The position numbers were made by a program, and so were the translations under genes. The notes below the pieces were generated by a model. The model had not been told where the DNA came from and ran no database searches. It saw only the letters and a list, made by a program, of their open reading frames with translations. Shown piece after piece: positions 1-7,847 of a DNA stretch of 7,847 nucleotides (positions are counted from its first letter, which is position 1; the number at the start of each line of letters is the position of its first letter). This DNA is from a virus (lineage: Duplodnaviria; Heunggongvirae; Uroviricota; Caudoviricetes), in IMG/VR virus record IMGVR_UViG_3300029847_000134; one strand, given 5' to 3'.

Positions 1-439
1 GGGCGGCGCATTTCGCGAACGATTCGCCAGCCGTGGCCTGAAACTGCAATTTTCCCTGCCAGACAGTATTACCGTATTTGGCGATCGCGACCGTTTAATG
101 CAGTTATTCAATAACTTACTGGAAAACAGCCTGCGCTACACTGACAGCGGCGGTAGCCTGAAAATCTCTGCCGAGCAGCACGACAAAACGGTGCGACTGA
201 CCTTTGCCGACAGCGCGCCGGGCGTCAGTGACGATCAGCTACAAAAATTGTTTGAACGTTTTTATCGCACCGAAGGTTCCCGCAACCGAGCCAGCGGCGG
301 TTCCGGGCTGGGGCTGGCGATTTGCCTGAACATTGTTGAAGCACATAATGGCCGCATTATTGCTGCCCATTCGCCTTTTGGCGGGGTAAGCATTACAGTA
401 GAGTTACCGCTGGAACGGGATTTACAGAGAGAAGTATGA
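1..439 (+). CDS. baeS: Sensor histidine kinase BaeS, C-terminal catalytic (HATPase) portion; 5' end lies upstream of the window (codon phase starts at nt 2)
   Basis: Open frame from the window edge to TGA at 437-439. Translation shows ATP-binding kinase motifs (DSAPGV, GGSGLGL). Stop overlaps the baeR start (ATGA at 436-439). Sits immediately upstream of a BaeR-like regulator. Confidence 0.88.
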
Positions 440-1158
440 CCGAGTTACCAATCGACGAAAACACACCGCGTATTTTGATCGTGGAAGATGAACCGAAGCT
501 GGGACAGTTGCTCATTGATTATCTGCGTGCTGCGAGCTATGCGCCGACGCTTATCAGCCACGGCGATCAGGTACTGCCGTATGTGCGCCAGACACCACCG
601 GATCTGATCCTGTTGGATCTGATGCTCCCTGGCACCGATGGCTTGACGCTGTGCCGGGAAATTCGTCGTTTTTCTGACATTCCTATCGTGATGGTGACGG
701 CAAAAATAGAAGAGATCGACCGCCTGCTCGGACTGGAGATTGGCGCTGATGACTACATCTGCAAACCGTACAGCCCACGGGAAGTGGTAGCGCGCGTCAA
801 AACCATTTTGCGCCGTTGCAAACCCCAGCGTGAGTTGCAGCAACAGGATGCTGAAAGCCCGTTGATTATCGACGAAAGTCGTTTTCAGGCTTCCTGGCGC
901 GGAAAAATGCTTGACCTGACGCCTGCGGAATTTCGTCTGTTGAAAACGCTCTCTCATGAACCAGGAAAAGTGTTCTCCCGCGAGCAATTGCTCAATCATC
1001 TTTATGACGACTACCGCGTAGTAACCGACCGCACCATCGACAGCCACATTAAAAACCTGCGTCGCAAGCTGGAATCTCTCGACGCCGAACAGTCCTTTAT
1101 CCGTGCCGTTTACGGCGTCGGTTACCGCTGGGAAGCCGACGCCTGCCGCATCGTTTAA
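436..1158 (+). CDS. baeR: Two-component response regulator BaeR (OmpR/PhoB family: receiver domain plus winged-helix DNA-binding domain)
   Basis: 240-aa ORF starting [23 protein letters not shown]. Receiver-domain acidic residues and phosphoacceptor context ([10 protein letters not shown]), C-terminal winged-helix region (VYGVGYRW). ATG overlaps the upstream kinase stop, indicating translational coupling. Confidence 0.93.
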
Positions 1159-1337: not shown

Positions 1338-1670
1338 ATGGCTGGTTGGTTTGAACTCAGTAAGAGCAGTGATAATCAGTTCCGGTTTGTGCTAAAAGCG
1401 GGCAATGGTGAGACTATCCTCACCAGCGAGCTATATACCTCAAAAGCCTCTGCGGAAAAGGGTATCGCGTCGGTGCGTAGCAACAGCCCGCAAGAAGAAC
1501 GCTATGAGAAAAAAACGGCAAGCAACGGCAAATTCTATTTCAATCTGAAAGCCGCCAATCATCAAATTATCGGCTCCAGCCAGATGTACGCCACCGCGCA
1601 ATCTCGTGAAACCGGAATTGCCTCCGTTAAAGCCAATGGCACAAGCCAGACGGTGAAAGACAATACGTAA
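1338..1670 (+). CDS. yegP: YegP, UPF0339/DUF1508 family small protein (110 aa) with two tandem repeats of the domain
   Basis: ORF starting MAGWFELSKSSDNQFRF with a strong SD (AAGGAG at 1327-1332) 5 nt upstream of ATG 1338. Internal duplication is visible (KASAEKGIASVRSN / SRETGIASVKANG). The in-frame ATG at 1299 lacks an SD. Confidence 0.85.
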   Translation: MAGWFELSKSSDNQFRFVLKAGNGETILTSELYTSKASAEKGIASVRSNSPQEERYEKKTASNGKFYFNLKAANHQIIGSSQMYATAQSRETGIASVKANGTSQTVKDNT

Positions 1671-1817: not shown

Positions 1818-3175
1818 ATGTTTAAACCGGAACTCCTTTCCCCGGCGGGAACGCTGAAAAATATGCGTTACGCTTTCGCTTATGGCGCAGATGCTGTTTA
1901 TGCGGGCCAGCCGCGTTACTCCCTNNNNNNNNNNNNNNNACGAATTCAACCACGAAAATCTTCAGCTCGGCATTAATGAAGCCCATGCGCTGGGGAAAAA
2001 GTTTTATGTCGTGGTCAACATTGCACCGCACAACGCCAAGCTGAAAACCTTTATCCGTGACCTGAAACCGGTGGTGGAAATGGGGCCAGATGCGCTGATT
2101 ATGTCCGATCCAGGGCTGATTATGCTGGTGCGTGAGCACTTCCCTGAAATGCCAATCCATCTCTCGGTACAGGCTAACGCCGTGAACTGGGCGACGGTGA
2201 AATTCTGGCAGCAAATGGGACTGACCCGCGTGATCCTCTCTCGCGAGCTGTCGCTGGAAGAGATTGAAGAGATTCGTAATCANNNNNNNNNNCGAGATCT
2301 TCGTTCACGGCGCGCTGTGCATGGCCTACTCCGGTCGCTGCCTGCTCTCTGGCTATATCAACAAGCGCGACCCGAACCAGGGCACCTGCACCAACGCCTG
2401 CCGCTGGGAGTACAACGTCCAGGAAGGGAAAGAAGATGACGTTGGCAACATCGTACACAAGTACGAGCCGATTCCGGTGCAAAATGTTGAGCCGACGCTG
2501 GGTATCGGCGCACCAACTGACAAAGTGTTTATGATCGAAGAAGCCCAGCGTCCGGGCGAGTATANNNNNNNNNNNNNNNNNNNNNNNNNNNNNACTTACA
2601 TCATGAACTCGAAAGATCTGCGCGCCATCGCCCATGTAGAACGCCTGACCAAAATGGGCGTGCATTCGCTGAAAATCGAAGGCCGTACCAAATCTTTCTA
2701 CTATTGCGCACGCACCGCACAGGTTTATCGTAAAGCTATCGATGACGCCGCTGCGGGCAAACCGTTCGATACCAGCCTGCTGGAAACGCTGGAAGGTCTG
2801 GCGCATCGTGGCTATACCGAAGGTTTCCTGCGTCGTCATACTCACGACGATTATCAGAACTACGAATACGGTTATTCAGTTTCTGACCGCCAGCAGTTTG
2901 TTGGTGAGTTTACCGGTGAGCGCAAGGGCGACCTCGCGGCGGTAGCGGTGAAAAATAAATTCTCCGTTGGCGACAGCCTTGAGCTGATGACGCCGCAAGG
3001 GAACATTAACTTTACCCTTGAGCACATGGAAAACACCAAAGGTGAAGCTATGCCGGTCGCACCAGGCGATGGTTATACTGTGTGGATCCCGGTGCCGCAG
3101 GATCTTGAGCTAAATTACGCGCTGCTGATGCGTAATTTCTCCGGGGAAACCACGCGTAACCCCCACGGTAAGTGA
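1818..3175 (+). CDS. trhP: Peptidase U32 family protein TrhP/YegQ (tRNA U34 hydroxylation-associated); reading frame interrupted by three N-runs (1925-1939, 2283-2292, 2565-2593)
   Basis: ATG at 1818 (MFKPELLSPAGTLKNMRYAFAYGADAVYAGQPRYSL) in phase 0. After the first N-run the coding phase is 1 (EFNHENLQLGINEAHALGKKF...), after the second it is phase 2 (EIFVHGALCMAYSGRCLLSGY...), and this continues through the third N-run to TGA at 3173-3175. Total span 1358 nt is not a multiple of 3. The conserved U32 Cys-rich segment (CMAYSGRC...CTNAC) is present. Confidence 0.8.
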
Positions 3176-3206: not shown

Positions 3207-3259
3207 TTCTTAGAAACCGATCACATACAGCTGCATTTATTAAGGTTATCATCTGTTTC
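3207..3259 (+). promoter_or_regulatory. Putative cyaR promoter with class II CRP site (half-site TCACA at 3221-3225, site centre about -42) and -10-like TATCAT at 3247-3252
   Basis: A 22-bp window 3207-3228 (ATTCTTAGAAACCGATCACATA) has one good and one degenerate CRP half-site. Spacing to the inferred CyaR 5' end at 3260 fits a class II CRP promoter; CyaR is known to be CRP-cAMP activated. Confidence 0.45.
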
Positions 3260-3312
3260 GCTGAAAAACATAACCCATAAAATGCTAGCTGTACCAGGAA
3301 CCACCTCCTTAG

Positions 3313-3346
3313 CCTGTGTAATCTCCCTTACACGGGCTTATTTTTT
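3313..3346 (+). terminator. Rho-independent terminator of CyaR
   Basis: Stem CCTGTGTAA (3313-3321) pairs with TTACACGGG (3328-3336) with one G-U pair and loop TCTCCC, followed by CTTATTTTTT. Confidence 0.8.
3320..3346. other. P2-type attachment core sequence (prophage/host junction, ogr-proximal end)
   Basis: Reverse complement of 3320-3346 is AAAAAATAAGCCCGTGTAAGGGAGATT, which matches the 27-bp P2 att core as I recall it. It is followed directly by P2-like ogr, D, U and T. Confidence 0.75.
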
Positions 3347-3410
3347 ACGCGTAATACAATGAAATAAAAGGATTTATTTCTGGTCACGTCCACACATTGA
3401 CCACATCGAC

Positions 3411-3436
3411 AAAAAAGCCCCTCGACTGAGGGGCTT
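3411..3436 (-). terminator. Intrinsic terminator downstream of ogr
   Basis: Perfect 9-bp stem (3415-3423 AAGCCCCTC / 3428-3436 GAGGGGCTT) with loop GACT. On the minus strand it is followed by a T-run (complement of AAAAAA at 3411-3416), 12 nt downstream of the ogr stop. Confidence 0.7.
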
Positions 3437-3447
3437 CCTGTTTGTAA

Positions 3448-3666
3448 TTACATCCACATAATTTGCTGCCCTGACGGCAACGGGTGCGGCCTCACGGCGT
3501 GGACTTCTCCCGGCTTCACGATGTATCGCTGTACCGACTCATAGGTGATGAACGTGGCGCTGCAATTCACGTTCTGGCACTGGTGATAACGCTCTTTTGT
3601 CGTGTCAGTGATATAGCGGCTTGTACGCGCATGTGCGGCATGCTGGCATAAAGGACAATGAAACAT
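3448..3666 (-). CDS. ogr: Ogr, P2 late-gene transcriptional activator (C4 zinc-finger, 72 aa)
   Basis: Translation MFHCPLCQHAAHARTSRYITDTTKERYHQCQNVNCSATFITYESVQRYIVKPGEVHAVRPHPLPSGQQIMWM with the CxxC...CxxxxC zinc-binding arrangement. SD GAGGTG precedes ATG at 3666. The longer ORF-track start at 3729 is rejected for lacking an SD and exceeding the known Ogr length. Confidence 0.9.
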   Translation of the reverse strand: MFHCPLCQHAAHARTSRYITDTTKERYHQCQNVNCSATFITYESVQRYIVKPGEVHAVRPHPLPSGQQIMWM

Positions 3667-3747
3667 CGCGAGCACCTCTTCCGGTTTTGTTGATGGTGCC
3701 ATATTAGTTAATTTATCCTTATAAAACAAATAGATAAAATAAAAACG

Positions 3748-4911
3748 TCACTCATCATCTTCTGTTTCGTACTCCACATCAGAAAGCCTGACCTCAAGCT
3801 CTAAGGACGTCGTGAAGCCGCTATTATTCAGAAAATGTGTCACCTTGGTGATTGTCCAGTCCTGCTCGTCTATGACGCGCTTAAAGCCTGACACCTTAAC
3901 CGGTGTTTCCGTGTAAATATCTGCCCGACCGGTAGCCAGGCTGATGGAGAACTCCGCAACGCCCCGTTGCAGTTTATCCCACTTCGCCTGAGCGGCGCGC
4001 ATGGCCTGCGCTTTCGTGGCATATACCGTGGTCAGGGCAAAAACATTGTCAGCCTCACCGGCCATGTATTCACCTTCGCGCGCTTCCGGCGCTTTTGGCG
4101 CTTTCTTCTGCGTGACTGGTTTCGCTTTCGGGTGCTCCAGTGCGCGCAGGTGTTTTTCTTTCTTTTTGCGTTTCAGTTTTACCTTCTGCTTTTGCGGCTT
4201 CGGGTCTTTGGTGTGAAGCCACTTTGCCGTTACGCCGGTATAGGCTCCACGGTCAGCAATCGCAAAATGGTGGCGGTCGCCGTCGCTGCGGGTTATGGTG
4301 ACCTGCGGGATTTTTTTACCGCTGGCCGTCACCCCCTGCCCCGCTTTGAGAAACAACAGTTTTCCCATTTTTACCGAGACCTCACCGCCGTTGCGTTCTG
4401 CAAGACGGGTCAGGAATTTCGCATCAGACTCCTGCGACTGGTCGATGTGCGGAATTTTAATTCCGGCCAGTGACGGAGCGACACTGGCTTCCAGCCTGTT
4501 ACGGGTGGCTATCGCCTCAACAATTGCACCGAGCGTGGTGTCATGCCAGGAGCCTTCCCGGCGGGAATTGAGCGTCCCGCGAAAATCTGCACTCCGGGCG
4601 CGGATGGTGACCACATCCGGTGCGCCCCGGTGTTCAACCTCATCGACGGTAAATTTCCCTTTGCATACCAGGGCAAAACCTTTCCAGCCGATATACACCG
4701 TCAGGACAGCGCCACGAATCGGTAGTCCGACCTGCCCGTCGGCATCGTTCAGTTCAATATCAAGCTGGTCAGCCTCAAAGCCCCGGTTATCCGTCAGAGT
4801 CATGCTCATCAGACGGTCGCTGATATTGCCGGTAATATCCCTGCTGTCGAGCATCAGCATGTAATCCGGCGTCAGCGTACTGCCTGCATCAAATGTCAGT
4901 GCATCCAGCAT
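3748..4911 (-). CDS. D: P2 gpD-like tail protein (late control gene D family; baseplate hub/gp27-like)
   Basis: 387-aa ORF, the same length as P2 gpD, located between U and ogr. Its start overlaps the U stop (TAATG). Confidence 0.88.
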   Translation of the reverse strand: MLDALTFDAGSTLTPDYMLMLDSRDITGNISDRLMSMTLTDNRGFEADQLDIELNDADGQVGLPIRGAVLTVYIGWKGFALVCKGKFTVDEVEHRGAPDVVTIRARSADFRGTLNSRREGSWHDTTLGAIVEAIATRNRLEASVAPSLAGIKIPHIDQSQESDAKFLTRLAERNGGEVSVKMGKLLFLKAGQGVTASGKKIPQVTITRSDGDRHHFAIADRGAYTGVTAKWLHTKDPKPQKQKVKLKRKKKEKHLRALEHPKAKPVTQKKAPKAPEAREGEYMAGEADNVFALTTVYATKAQAMRAAQAKWDKLQRGVAEFSISLATGRADIYTETPVKVSGFKRVIDEQDWTITKVTHFLNNSGFTTSLELEVRLSDVEYETEDDE

Positions 4912-5390
4912 TATCCCGCCCCCGTCATACCTGTGAATTTAGTCGCCATACTGCCAGCCTTACCGATGAGCGATTCCGCCTGTTTACCGATATCGCCATA
5001 AAGCGCGGCCAGTGATTCGTCAACGCGGGTGAGCGACAGCGTAAAATCAATTTTTCGGGGTGTGCCGTCTGCAAAGAAAATACTCCCTGTTTCACTCACC
5101 TTGCTGATGACATACATGCCGTAAATCATGCCGGTGCCATCCAGCAACGGCCACGCCCGGCCTTCCTCTGCCATCAGCCTGAGCGTGGTCATCGTCAGCT
5201 TCCCGCCGGTCAGTTCGGGATAAAGCACGCCGGCAAGCGTCATGTTTTCCTCACCCACACCGAGAAACTGAAAGGCATCCCGTTTACCGATACGGGAATT
5301 TGACGGCCAGCGATAATCTGATTCGCGCTGCATGGTCTGGTGTGGCAGCGTCTGGCGCATAAAAACAAACATACCTAACGCGAGCATCAT
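4911..5390 (-). CDS. U: P2 gpU-like tail protein
   Basis: 159-aa ORF (MMLALGMFVF...) between T and D. SD GGAAGGTG lies upstream of the ATG at 5390. Stop overlaps the D start. Confidence 0.88.
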   Translation of the reverse strand: MMLALGMFVFMRQTLPHQTMQRESDYRWPSNSRIGKRDAFQFLGVGEENMTLAGVLYPELTGGKLTMTTLRLMAEEGRAWPLLDGTGMIYGMYVISKVSETGSIFFADGTPRKIDFTLSLTRVDESLAALYGDIGKQAESLIGKAGSMATKFTGMTGAG

Positions 5391-5405
5391 TTTTCGTCAC
5401 CTTCC

Positions 5406-7847
5406 TTAACCGTCATGCATCATGCTGGCACGGGCGCGCGCACGTTTATCCCGCTCGTATTTTTCGAGCGCATCCTGTAACTGGCGGTCGAGCTGAGTCC
5501 CCGGCGCAGTACTGCCCGTCAGACTGATGTGATATTCGTTTTTACTCTGGTCCACATAAGAGCGGCCAGCCGGTGCCGTGACCGGCTGATAAGCCTGATA
5601 GCCTGCATAAGAGCTGGTCGCCGGAATATAACCACCGCTGCCATACGTGGCGGCTTGAGTTCTGGCGGCGGTCTGGTCAAGTGTGTCTGACTCTTTGTTG
5701 ATAACACCGAGTTTTTCCAGTACCCAGTCAATACCGCTGCGCAGTTTGTTGAACGCATTAAGCGGCAGCATCAGCGCGTCAGCCAGTGCCTGCCCGAACA
5801 TGACCCCCGTGTCACGGCAACTGTTCAGGGTGTCCTGAGTGGCTTTGACCGGGGCAATCAGGTTTTTAAACCACTGCCACGCGGCCTGTAACTTTTCACC
5901 CAGCCAGTCAAACACCGGCTTAAGTGGCGTGAACAGTTCCCCCACCGGCGCAAATGCCGCTTTCAGCCCTTCCACCACACCGCCAAAGAATGCGCTGACA
6001 GGCTCCCAGTATTTACGAATAAGCAACGCCCCGGCGACAATGGCGGCCACCACAGCCACAACCGGCCAGCTAATCGCCCCGATGGCCGTCATAACAGCAC
6101 TGCCAACCGTCGTGAAGATTGCACCCATTGCGCCTGCTGCCGCGATGATGGCATTGATGCCGGTGATAACCGGCCAGGCTACGAGGCCAATGGCACCGAT
6201 GACGCCAGTCAGCGCCAGTGCGCCACCGACAATGAGGCCGATGGTTGACGCCAGTGATTTGTTTTTCTGGATCCAGCCGTCGAGTTTTAACACATACTTT
6301 GTGGCCGTCTGTGTGAGCTTACGCAGTGCGCCTTCCTGCTGGTCAAACAGGTCAGTCCCCACCGCCTCATAAGCGGACTGAAACTCCTTAAAGTCACCGC
6401 CGAGGTTGTCCTGCATGATATTTACCAGCTCTGCGGTCTTCCCGTCTGAGGCTTTAAACGCAGCGGTCAGTTTGTCCAGCTTTCCGGTTGAGGCTGCAGT
6501 CATCAGCACGGCGGCGGCTGAGCTGGCCTCCTCCCCGAAAATGGTTTTCATGTATTCAGCCTGCTGGGCAGTACCGAGCCGGTTTTTCTCAAAACTGGCC
6601 TGCATTTCTTTCAGAATGGTAAATACTGGCCGGGTATTCCCCTTGCTGTCTGAGGTTTTCACGCCAAGCTCTTTGAGTGCATCCCATGCTTTTCCCGTCG
6701 GTGCCTGCAGGCGACTTAACACGGCACGGCTTCCCGTCCCCGCCATTGAACCGGTAATTTTTGCATCATGCAGCGCCCCGACCATTGCGGCGGTTTCTTC
6801 AATGCTGACACCGGCATTTTTTGCCACAGGTGCGGCATAGGTCAGCGCATCGCTCATGCCGTCAAAATCGGCGGCGGTTTTGTTCATCGTCATGGAGAGA
6901 ACATCCCCGATATGAGCGACCTTATCGTTTGAAAGCTGAAAGGCGGATTTCATCCCCATCAGCAGGGCGGCGTTTTCTTCCATCGTGCGGCGGTTCGCCA
7001 GTGCCATATTCAGCGTGACCGGCGTTGCCGCCTGAATGGCATCAACATCCCCACCGGCTTTCGCAATGATAATCTGTGCACCGGCTGCATCATCCGCCGA
7101 GGCGGCAGTATTGTCACCGAGCTGGCGCGCCTGCTTGCGGAGTGCGGCCATTTCGGCGGAGTCTTTTGCCACACCTAGCACGGCCTGCAATTCTGAGTTT
7201 TTCTGCGCAAACTCATAACCGGGCATCAGTAGCTTAACACCGGCCATCGTTCCCGCCACCGCAATCCCCACACCGGCAGCGCCCACTGAGGCCATATTTC
7301 CGGCCAGTTCCTTTCCGGACTGATAACGCTGTTTTACTGCGTTAAGTTTTGCCTGTTGCGCACTGACACGCGCCAGCGCGTCGCGCTGACGGTTAAGCTG
7401 TGCGGTGGTTTCACTGATACGGTTTTTCAGTCCCTGCTCATCATGTGCAAGATTGCGGGTATTAATTCCCACAGCGGCCAGTTCCCGCTGCTGGCGTTTA
7501 ACGGAATCTGTCAGGCGGTTATATTTCGCCTGTAAGTCCTCCGCCGCACGCTTTGCGGATTCCAGCACTTTCGCCTGAGCACGGGTCGGACGTTCGGTGT
7601 TTTTAAACTGTGTGGCAAGGGCTTCGGCTTCCTGCCGAGCCTTTTCAAGTGCATGACCAGTCACGGCGAGCTGTGCACTGGTCTTGCGAAATCCCTCAAT
7701 ACGGGATGCGTGACCGTTCAGCTCGCGCAGTGATTTTTGTGTTTCCCGGATATCCCCCGACAGCGACCTGCTCGCTGTACGGATGGATTTAAACGGGCGG
7801 GATGCCTGGTCAACAGCCCTGAGCAATACCTGTAATTTTACATTGTT
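5406..7847 (-). CDS. T: P2 gpT-like tail tape measure protein; N-terminus truncated by the window edge
   Basis: Reading frame is open from the window edge to TAA at 5406-5408; the ORF-track start at 7826 is a TTG with open frame upstream. At least 813 codons fall in the window, against about 815 aa recalled for P2 gpT. N-terminal coiled-coil-like Q/A/R/K-rich region, central Gly/Ala-rich hydrophobic segments, position upstream of U. Confidence 0.88.
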   Translation of the reverse strand, partial: NNVKLQVLLRAVDQASRPFKSIRTASRSLSGDIRETQKSLRELNGHASRIEGFRKTSAQLAVTGHALEKARQEAEALATQFKNTERPTRAQAKVLESAKRAAEDLQAKYNRLTDSVKRQQRELAAVGINTRNLAHDEQGLKNRISETTAQLNRQRDALARVSAQQAKLNAVKQRYQSGKELAGNMASVGAAGVGIAVAGTMAGVKLLMPGYEFAQKNSELQAVLGVAKDSAEMAALRKQARQLGDNTAASADDAAGAQIIIAKAGGDVDAIQAATPVTLNMALANRRTMEENAALLMGMKSAFQLSNDKVAHIGDVLSMTMNKTAADFDGMSDALTYAAPVAKNAGVSIEETAAMVGALHDAKITGSMAGTGSRAVLSRLQAPTGKAWDALKELGVKTSDSKGNTRPVFTILKEMQASFEKNRLGTAQQAEYMKTIFGEEASSAAAVLMTAASTGKLDKLTAAFKASDGKTAELVNIMQDNLGGDFKEFQSAYEAVGTDLFDQQEGALRKLTQTATKYVLKLDGWIQKNKSLASTIGLIVGGALALTGVIGAIGLVAWPVITGINAIIAAAGAMGAIFTTVGSAVMTAIGAISWPVVAVVAAIVAGALLIRKYWEPVSAFFGGVVEGLKAAFAPVGELFTPLKPVFDWLGEKLQAAWQWFKNLIAPVKATQDTLNSCRDTGVMFGQALADALMLPLNAFNKLRSGIDWVLEKLGVINKESDTLDQTAARTQAATYGSGGYIPATSSYAGYQAYQPVTAPAGRSYVDQSKNEYHISLTGSTAPGTQLDRQLQDALEKYERDKRARARASMMHDG

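Follow-up and report, generated by a model that had tools for sequence, protein, structure and literature searches.

A P2-like attR junction within the terminator of the small RNA gene cyaR in Escherichia coli

Integration at the 3′ end of an RNA gene is described for phage 186 in tRNA-Ile, for HP1 in tRNA-Leu, and for Fels-2 and SopEPhi in ssrA (PMC3448106). In these tRNA- and tmRNA-targeting phages the 3′ end of the RNA gene is duplicated in attP, so that insertion regenerates the gene, and recombination is performed by a tyrosine integrase with arm and core sites. P2-type integrases mostly insert 'between other genes', and cyaR is not named in that account (PMC3448106). A small RNA gene in a comparable role is sdsR/ryeB of Salmonella, a locus that has repeatedly taken up foreign DNA and is an attachment site for present-day phages (PMC3333887; PMC3603311). 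For E. coli, Bobay et al. 2013 (PMC3603311), with reference to Wassarman et al. 2001, mention ryeE (= cyaR) as 'previously known to be targeted by phages'. Our search of the open-access literature found no paper naming both 'cyaR' and P2. The closest described system is the attR of P2 at locI together with the cryptic remnant in K-12 (cyaR-ogrK-D'/yegZ); locI and the K-12 remnant were reportedly defined by Barreiro & Haggard-Ljungquist in 1992.

The locus analyzed here lies in a stretch of 7,847 nucleotides catalogued as a viral record, which we call the window. It shares with P2 attR and the K-12 remnant the same 27-nt core, the Int region of the P arm, the yegQ-cyaR flank and the orientation of ogr. 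Compared with P2 it carries a few substitutions, located at 3347-3360 inside the spacer/IHF region. The difference to the K-12 remnant is larger, as the latter (locus L004) keeps 213 nt of gene D fused to a partial core, ACACGGGCTTATTTTTTT, whereas the window holds the full D and U genes and nearly all of T. Similar to the phages that target tRNA and tmRNA genes, attP copies the 3′ end of an RNA gene that is regenerated; unlike those targets, cyaR encodes an Hfq-dependent sRNA, and the copied part is an intrinsic terminator instead of a T-arm or acceptor stem. With sdsR/ryeB it has in common that an sRNA locus has repeatedly received foreign DNA and is used by present-day phages, although the sRNA, the phages and the host genus are different. 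A P2-type junction in cyaR is thus an already described arrangement and a textbook phage attachment site, and it offers a clean case of an sRNA terminator being used by an integrase in the way that tRNA 3′ ends are.

We interpret the window as containing the attR (P-O-B' in lambda-style notation) of a P2-like (Peduovirus) prophage inserted at its preferred E. coli site, the 3′ end of cyaR, by an integration event that would have rebuilt cyaR unchanged. Judged from sequence comparison, we give this reading a probability of about 0.92. The features on which it is based are collected in Table 1, in which P2 features were transferred to the window with an offset of +1819 from the coordinates of the P2 locus L001.

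Table 1. Features of the window and, as predicted, of the opposite prophage end
Feature	Position	Strand	Basis
baeS, 3′ part (host)	1-439	+	HATPase_c domain; collinear with baeS in E. coli loci L002-L004
baeR response regulator (host)	436-1158	+	Response_reg and Trans_reg_C; annotated baeR in aligned E. coli loci
yegP (host, DUF1508)	1338-1670	+	Pfam DUF1508; matches position of the 333-nt yegP in L002; start codon assigned by homology
yegQ/trhP (host, peptidase U32 family)	1818-3175	+	Peptidase_U32 and U32_C, split over two ORFs
CRP-site-like sequence TTAGAAACCGATCACA	3210-3225	+	Read from sequence; centre ~42 nt upstream of cyaR start
cyaR (ryeE) sRNA gene, 87 nt	3260-3346	+	RF00112 match and fold
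CyaR intrinsic terminator hairpin, 11-bp stem and 6-nt loop	3311-3338	+	Covariance model, MFE fold, terminator scan
att core (O), 27 nt	3320-3346	-	Equals P2 attP core; host/phage crossover somewhere inside
IHF-binding region of P arm (putative)	3345-3378	-	Homology to P2 feature, L001 1526-1559
Int arm-type binding sites of P arm (putative)	3382-3409	-	P2 feature, L001 1563-1590; identical to P2
Rho-independent terminator of ogr and F operon	3414-3437	-	P2 annotation; hairpin found at 3415-3436, detectable on + strand too
ogr, late-gene activator, 72 aa	3448-3666	-	Ogr_Delta zinc finger; 72/72 identical to P2 Ogr
Gene D (tail/baseplate hub), full length, 387 aa	3748-4911	-	Phage_GPD; collinear with P2 D
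Gene U (tail protein), 159 aa	4911-5390	-	Phage_P2_GpU; collinear with P2 U
Gene T (tape measure), 5′ end beyond window	5406-7847	-	PhageMin_Tail; P2 T = 2448 nt; related E. coli prophages align as far as the window end
Second core, expected at int-side prophage end, outside window			Predicted as AATCTCCCTTACACGGGCTTATTTTTT next to a P2-type int

The core itself is the 27-mer AAAAAATAAGCCCGTGTAAGGGAGATT, which occurs once in the window and without a mismatch, while 200 dinucleotide shuffles gave 0 matches with up to 3 mismatches allowed. The same 27 nt are found in the P2 genome (AF063097, 24356-24382), where they are annotated as 'attP' and 'Int attP core', and all 27 core columns are identical in the alignment of the window with P2. 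The surrounding RNA gene is recognized by a full-length match to the Rfam family RF00112 (model positions 1-85 of 85; window 3258-3343, plus strand) with 100.7 bits and E = 7.6e-20, well above the gathering score of 47. Its 5′ end is placed at 3260, after the K-12 RNA. Covariance model, minimum free energy fold and terminator scan agree on a stem formed by 3311-3321 and 3328-3338, a loop at 3322-3327 and a tail at 3339-3346, with TATTTTTT as the U tail that follows the stem. The core thus takes in everything from the final 2 nt of the 5′ half-stem onward, namely loop, complete 3′ half-stem and U tail. Upstream of cyaR, the sequence TTAGAAACCGATCACA is a candidate CRP site, which fits the published dependence of CyaR on CRP (cited in PMC3333887); a sigma-70 consensus scan found no promoter.

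Where host sequence gives way to phage sequence can be seen by comparison with occupied and empty sites. Homology to P2 and to 100 other Peduovirus records begins exactly at 3320 (megablast, query base 121). Similarity to empty E. coli sites, which have the gene order yegQ-cyaR-yegR-yegS (PT62, L002; MS10858, L003), stops at 3346, or at 3354 by way of a short imperfect extension. Host and phage similarity thus share exactly the 27-bp core, and an overlap of this kind is the signature of a site-specific recombination junction. As ogr and the P arm adjoin the core, the junction is the attR, located at locI between yegQ/trhP and yegR. On the phage side, ogr, D, U and T sit in P2 order beside the P arm, and 3320-5501 is 97.0% identical to P2 in a pairwise blast. 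The P arm contains the minus-strand direct repeats TGTGGTCA (3398-3405) and TGTGGACG (3387-3394), which at the sequence level match the arm-site consensus of P2-type integrases, tgTGGaCa (PMC3448106). Core, P arm, boundary switch and late genes are all as they would be in a P2-type attR at locI, and nothing in the data speaks against this reading. For annotation, the prophage boundary can be set to within 3320-3346, leaving cyaR intact.

These comparisons bear on an earlier note on this DNA, made from the sequence alone. It had given the P2 core and placed its reverse complement at 3320-3346, which is right at 27 of 27 positions against the attP annotated in AF063097, and its assignment of the core to loop, 3′ half-stem and U tail is borne out by RF00112 and the fold, except that the core reaches 2 nt further, into the 5′ half-stem. 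The interval it had given, 3313-3346, holds for the core part from 3320; the bases from 3313 up to the core are G+C bases on the 5′ side of the stem, which derive from the host only and lie outside the core. Its view that the host/prophage junction falls within the sRNA gene agrees with P2 similarity starting at 3320 and empty-site similarity reaching 3346 or 3354; the alignment to P2 attP and to an empty attB, which it had proposed as a check, yields an identical core and these same breakpoints. Likewise, its assignment of the site to locI next to yegQ, used by P2-like phages, is confirmed by yegQ on the left and P arm-ogr-D-U-T on the right, where empty sites have yegR.

The host flank calls for one technical remark. 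Three N-masked runs lie in yegQ/trhP (1925-1939, 2283-2292 and 2565-2593), and their lengths differ from those of the E. coli sequence they replace, which results in spurious yegQ frameshifts in the lists of open reading frames. In L002 yegQ is intact. We considered yegQ and baeS as frameshifted pseudogenes and rejected the idea, the masked runs and the window edge explaining the apparent frameshifts.

An integrated P2-like prophage should possess a second core at its other end. E. coli WP7-S17-ESBL-01 (L005) carries a P2-like prophage between yegR and yegQ with an exact core at each end; the two copies are 35,194 bp apart, and the one on the yegR side lies ~80 bp from the start of int. Similarly, the representative genome of E. 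ruysiae has two exact cores separated by 32,468 bp across the contig start, one accompanied by the P arm and the other by the P' flank. In these relatives int lies beside the distal core, and both spacings fit the predicted 30-35 kb within about 0.2 kb. The variable region of the WP7-S17-ESBL-01 prophage (L005 11676-17429) contains a reverse-transcriptase family gene, an FRG-domain gene and an IS21-family insertion.

The arrangement is widespread in E. coli. Among 5426 complete genomes, the cyaR-core-ogr junction is found in 1128 (~21%), at least 80% of the whole window is matched in 668, and 763 carry the int-P' arm-core end; the best whole-window identity in this set is 97.5%. None of the 21 loci holding the core in the genome_contigs collection is identical to the window. 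Many complete E. coli assemblies begin inside a P2-like prophage, with the window match ~25-35 kb from the start of the record and int in the last 4 kb, which is probably an artefact of assembly rotation.

How much of a prophage lies behind the junction is a separate question. The junction could belong to a defective remnant, like the ogrK-D' remnant of K-12 but larger, and not to a complete, excisable prophage. Such remnants exist, since K-12-like genomes show the same core, P arm and ogrK followed by just the 213 nt of D and the partial core, and the excess of genomes with the cyaR-ogr junction over those with at least 80% of the window (1128 against 668) suggests that they are common at locI. 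Nevertheless, we regard a remnant as unlikely for the window. The D and U reading frames and no fewer than 806 codons of T read without interruption and follow P2 in order at 97% identity, and genomes with the matching int end outnumber those matching at least 80% of the window (763 against 668). Furthermore, D is read through at the K-12 deletion point (about 3957 in the window), so the prophage of the window is not the K-12 remnant. It is probably complete.

A second possibility is that lysogeny alters CyaR output, with the T run and downstream context of the phage shifting termination or Hfq binding, or with read-through running antisense into the P arm and ogr. Several observations lend this some plausibility. 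The terminator of K-12 CyaR has a measured read-through of 41% (PMC9765468), and in the window cyaR and ogr are convergent with only 68 nt between their terminators. In a small sample of T-run alleles set against 3340-3346 of the window, the phage-supplied (attR) copies always have exactly 6 T, while host-derived runs have 6 (MS10858, ECMA0423), 7 (PT62, Shigella, MOD1-EC7003 and, in K-12-like strains, the yegR-side partial core) or 8 (E. ruysiae). The bases that follow the T run also change, from ATGCATAA in empty sites to ACGCGTAA in the lysogen. P2 lysogeny can accordingly be predicted to take one or two residues off the U tail of CyaR in certain lineages. However, the mature CyaR RNA of the window equals a six-T host allele, and a difference of one U in the 8-nt tail UUAUUUUUU may be neutral, which makes an effect on CyaR output improbable here.

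That the 27-mer is just the native CyaR terminator, or host attB, of every strain and has no phage meaning is correct for the 27-mer alone, which is identical in the unoccupied PT62 and MS10858 sites and in 12 Kluyvera species loci without P2 genes alongside, but is as good as refuted for this locus, where P2 sequence with P arm, ogr, D, U and T directly adjoins the core in place of the yegR flank. As every unoccupied site has the 27-mer, it is by itself no evidence of a prophage; the evidence is the P arm with the ogr-D-U-T genes.

Under the attR reading, the mechanism can be modelled on the P2 literature, in which integration uses a tyrosine integrase with core and arm sites and IHF, and excision in addition needs Cox (PMC3448106; AF063097). 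The P2 integrase and IHF would recombine the attP core with its 27-bp counterpart in the CyaR terminator. Since attP and attB agree throughout the core, cyaR would be rebuilt unchanged on the ogr side of the prophage, and a second, non-functional partial copy of the terminator would be left at the other end next to int. The DNA beyond the point of strand exchange, presumably the T run together with approximately the distal portion of the 3′ half-stem, would be phage DNA with the same sequence as the DNA it replaced, and the crossover is invisible within the core because the two parents are identical there. The earlier note had stated that CyaR termination depends on phage-derived sequence, the prophage supplying the 3′ end of the sRNA. 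This is correct as a statement on DNA ancestry only. The 87-nt cyaR of the window is that of the empty six-T site in MS10858, the sole nearby difference, at 3254, lying ahead of the transcribed part, and CyaR is accordingly predicted to function as before.

Lysogens at secondary sites were considered as a way to place the point of strand exchange. All but one of the 763 genomes with the int-side end cover at least 80% of the 227-nt int-P'-core query, the matches end at the last core base in 59 of the 60 rows listed, and no hybrid cores from secondary-site lysogens are evident among the matches listed. In the K-12 remnant, the deletion joint falls between about T9 and T10 of the core, counted in cyaR orientation; this is suggestive only as a hint at the location of strand exchange. 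At this joint (L004 4040-4080, compared with window 3940-3975) D sequence (…GGAGAACTCTGC) is fused to mid-core (TACACGGGCTTATTTTTTT), and the D sequence loosely resembles the left half of the core, which suggests that the remnant may have arisen by Int-mediated aberrant recombination. CyaR as studied in K-12 owes the rebuilding of its 3′ end to a P2 remnant.

The empty site of E. coli may have a history of its own. On the simplest reading, which we think probable with some reservation, the 'unoccupied' attB at locI is itself the scar (attR) of a much older P2-like integration. In MS10858 (L003 3448-4250), PT62 (L002) and Escherichia sp. MOD1-EC7003 (L026) the layout comprises the exact core, a decayed P arm, yegR, a P'-like flank and a degenerate second core. 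On its right-hand side the empty site of E. coli reads CTGGTAACCGTCTTCCATTGACCACATCGA, which resembles the P2 P arm, CTGGTCACGTCCACACATTGACCACATCGA, with an alignment score reached by 0 of 2000 shuffles, and in MOD1-EC7003 the IHF-site part of the P arm is kept as well. The degenerate second core, AATCTTCCATACTTGAACTGACTTTTT, follows ~775 bp on, after yegR, with 19 of 27 positions matching in E. coli and 21 of 27 in MOD1-EC7003. Its preceding flank resembles P2 P'-proximal sequence (score reached by 0 of 3000 shuffles for MOD1-EC7003 and 3 of 3000 for MS10858), and it ends 88 nt before the yegS ATG, the same distance at which E. ruysiae has an exact core. E. ruysiae and Kluyvera are without the ~775-bp yegR islet, and in Kluyvera the exact core lies 75 nt from yegS or the slot holds another small cassette. 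The 12 Kluyvera loci, each from a GTDB species representative genome, carry the exact 27-nt P2 core in cyaR within flanks that are only about 80% identical to E. coli.

If the interpretation as an old scar is true, the distal half of the CyaR terminator would have been phage-supplied in all E. coli since an ancient event, yegR would be leftover cargo, and the cyaR core would be a long-lived integration hot spot for several elements in Escherichia and Kluyvera. The arm-like sequences and the decayed second core of the empty site could bear on sRNA loci as integration hot spots and on the origin of orphan genes such as yegR. We found no paper describing a fossil P2-like insertion at yegR. As to yegR being a phage gene, we obtained no independent evidence: it has no Pfam match and one PHROG match of unknown function, and in the phage collection it appears only in two prophage-derived records, both with host flank. 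A 10-nt core-like sequence, AATCTCCCTT, ~50 nt to the right of the core in MS10858 was also considered and discarded as a core remnant; it varies between strains (AATCCTCCTT, AATCCCCCTT).

Further observations concern the neighbourhood of the core in other genera. The slot between core and yegS in Kluyvera is occupied by hicAB-like genes in three loci (L008, L016, L024), by higBA/RelE-like genes in three others (L009, L013, L020), and by no cassette in L010, L014 and L015, the toxin-antitoxin-like assignments being our interpretation of the ORFs. The stem half on the 5′ side, which is host-only, has changed in K. sichuanensis (GCCCGCGT), and the core half shows no compensatory substitution. 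Two loci labelled Enterobacter hormaechei (L006, CP170191.1; L017, CP169086.1) have a yegQ-cyaR side about 98% identical to E. coli, a comparison that for L006 covers a flank of 525 nt only, and beyond the core a yegS that is not of the E. coli type. L006 also carries a second core with 23 of 27 matching positions, AGGCCCCCTTACGCGGGCTTATTTTTT, 79 nt before yegS. These two records may come from hybrid genomes, or the att core may have served as the endpoint of a recombination event.
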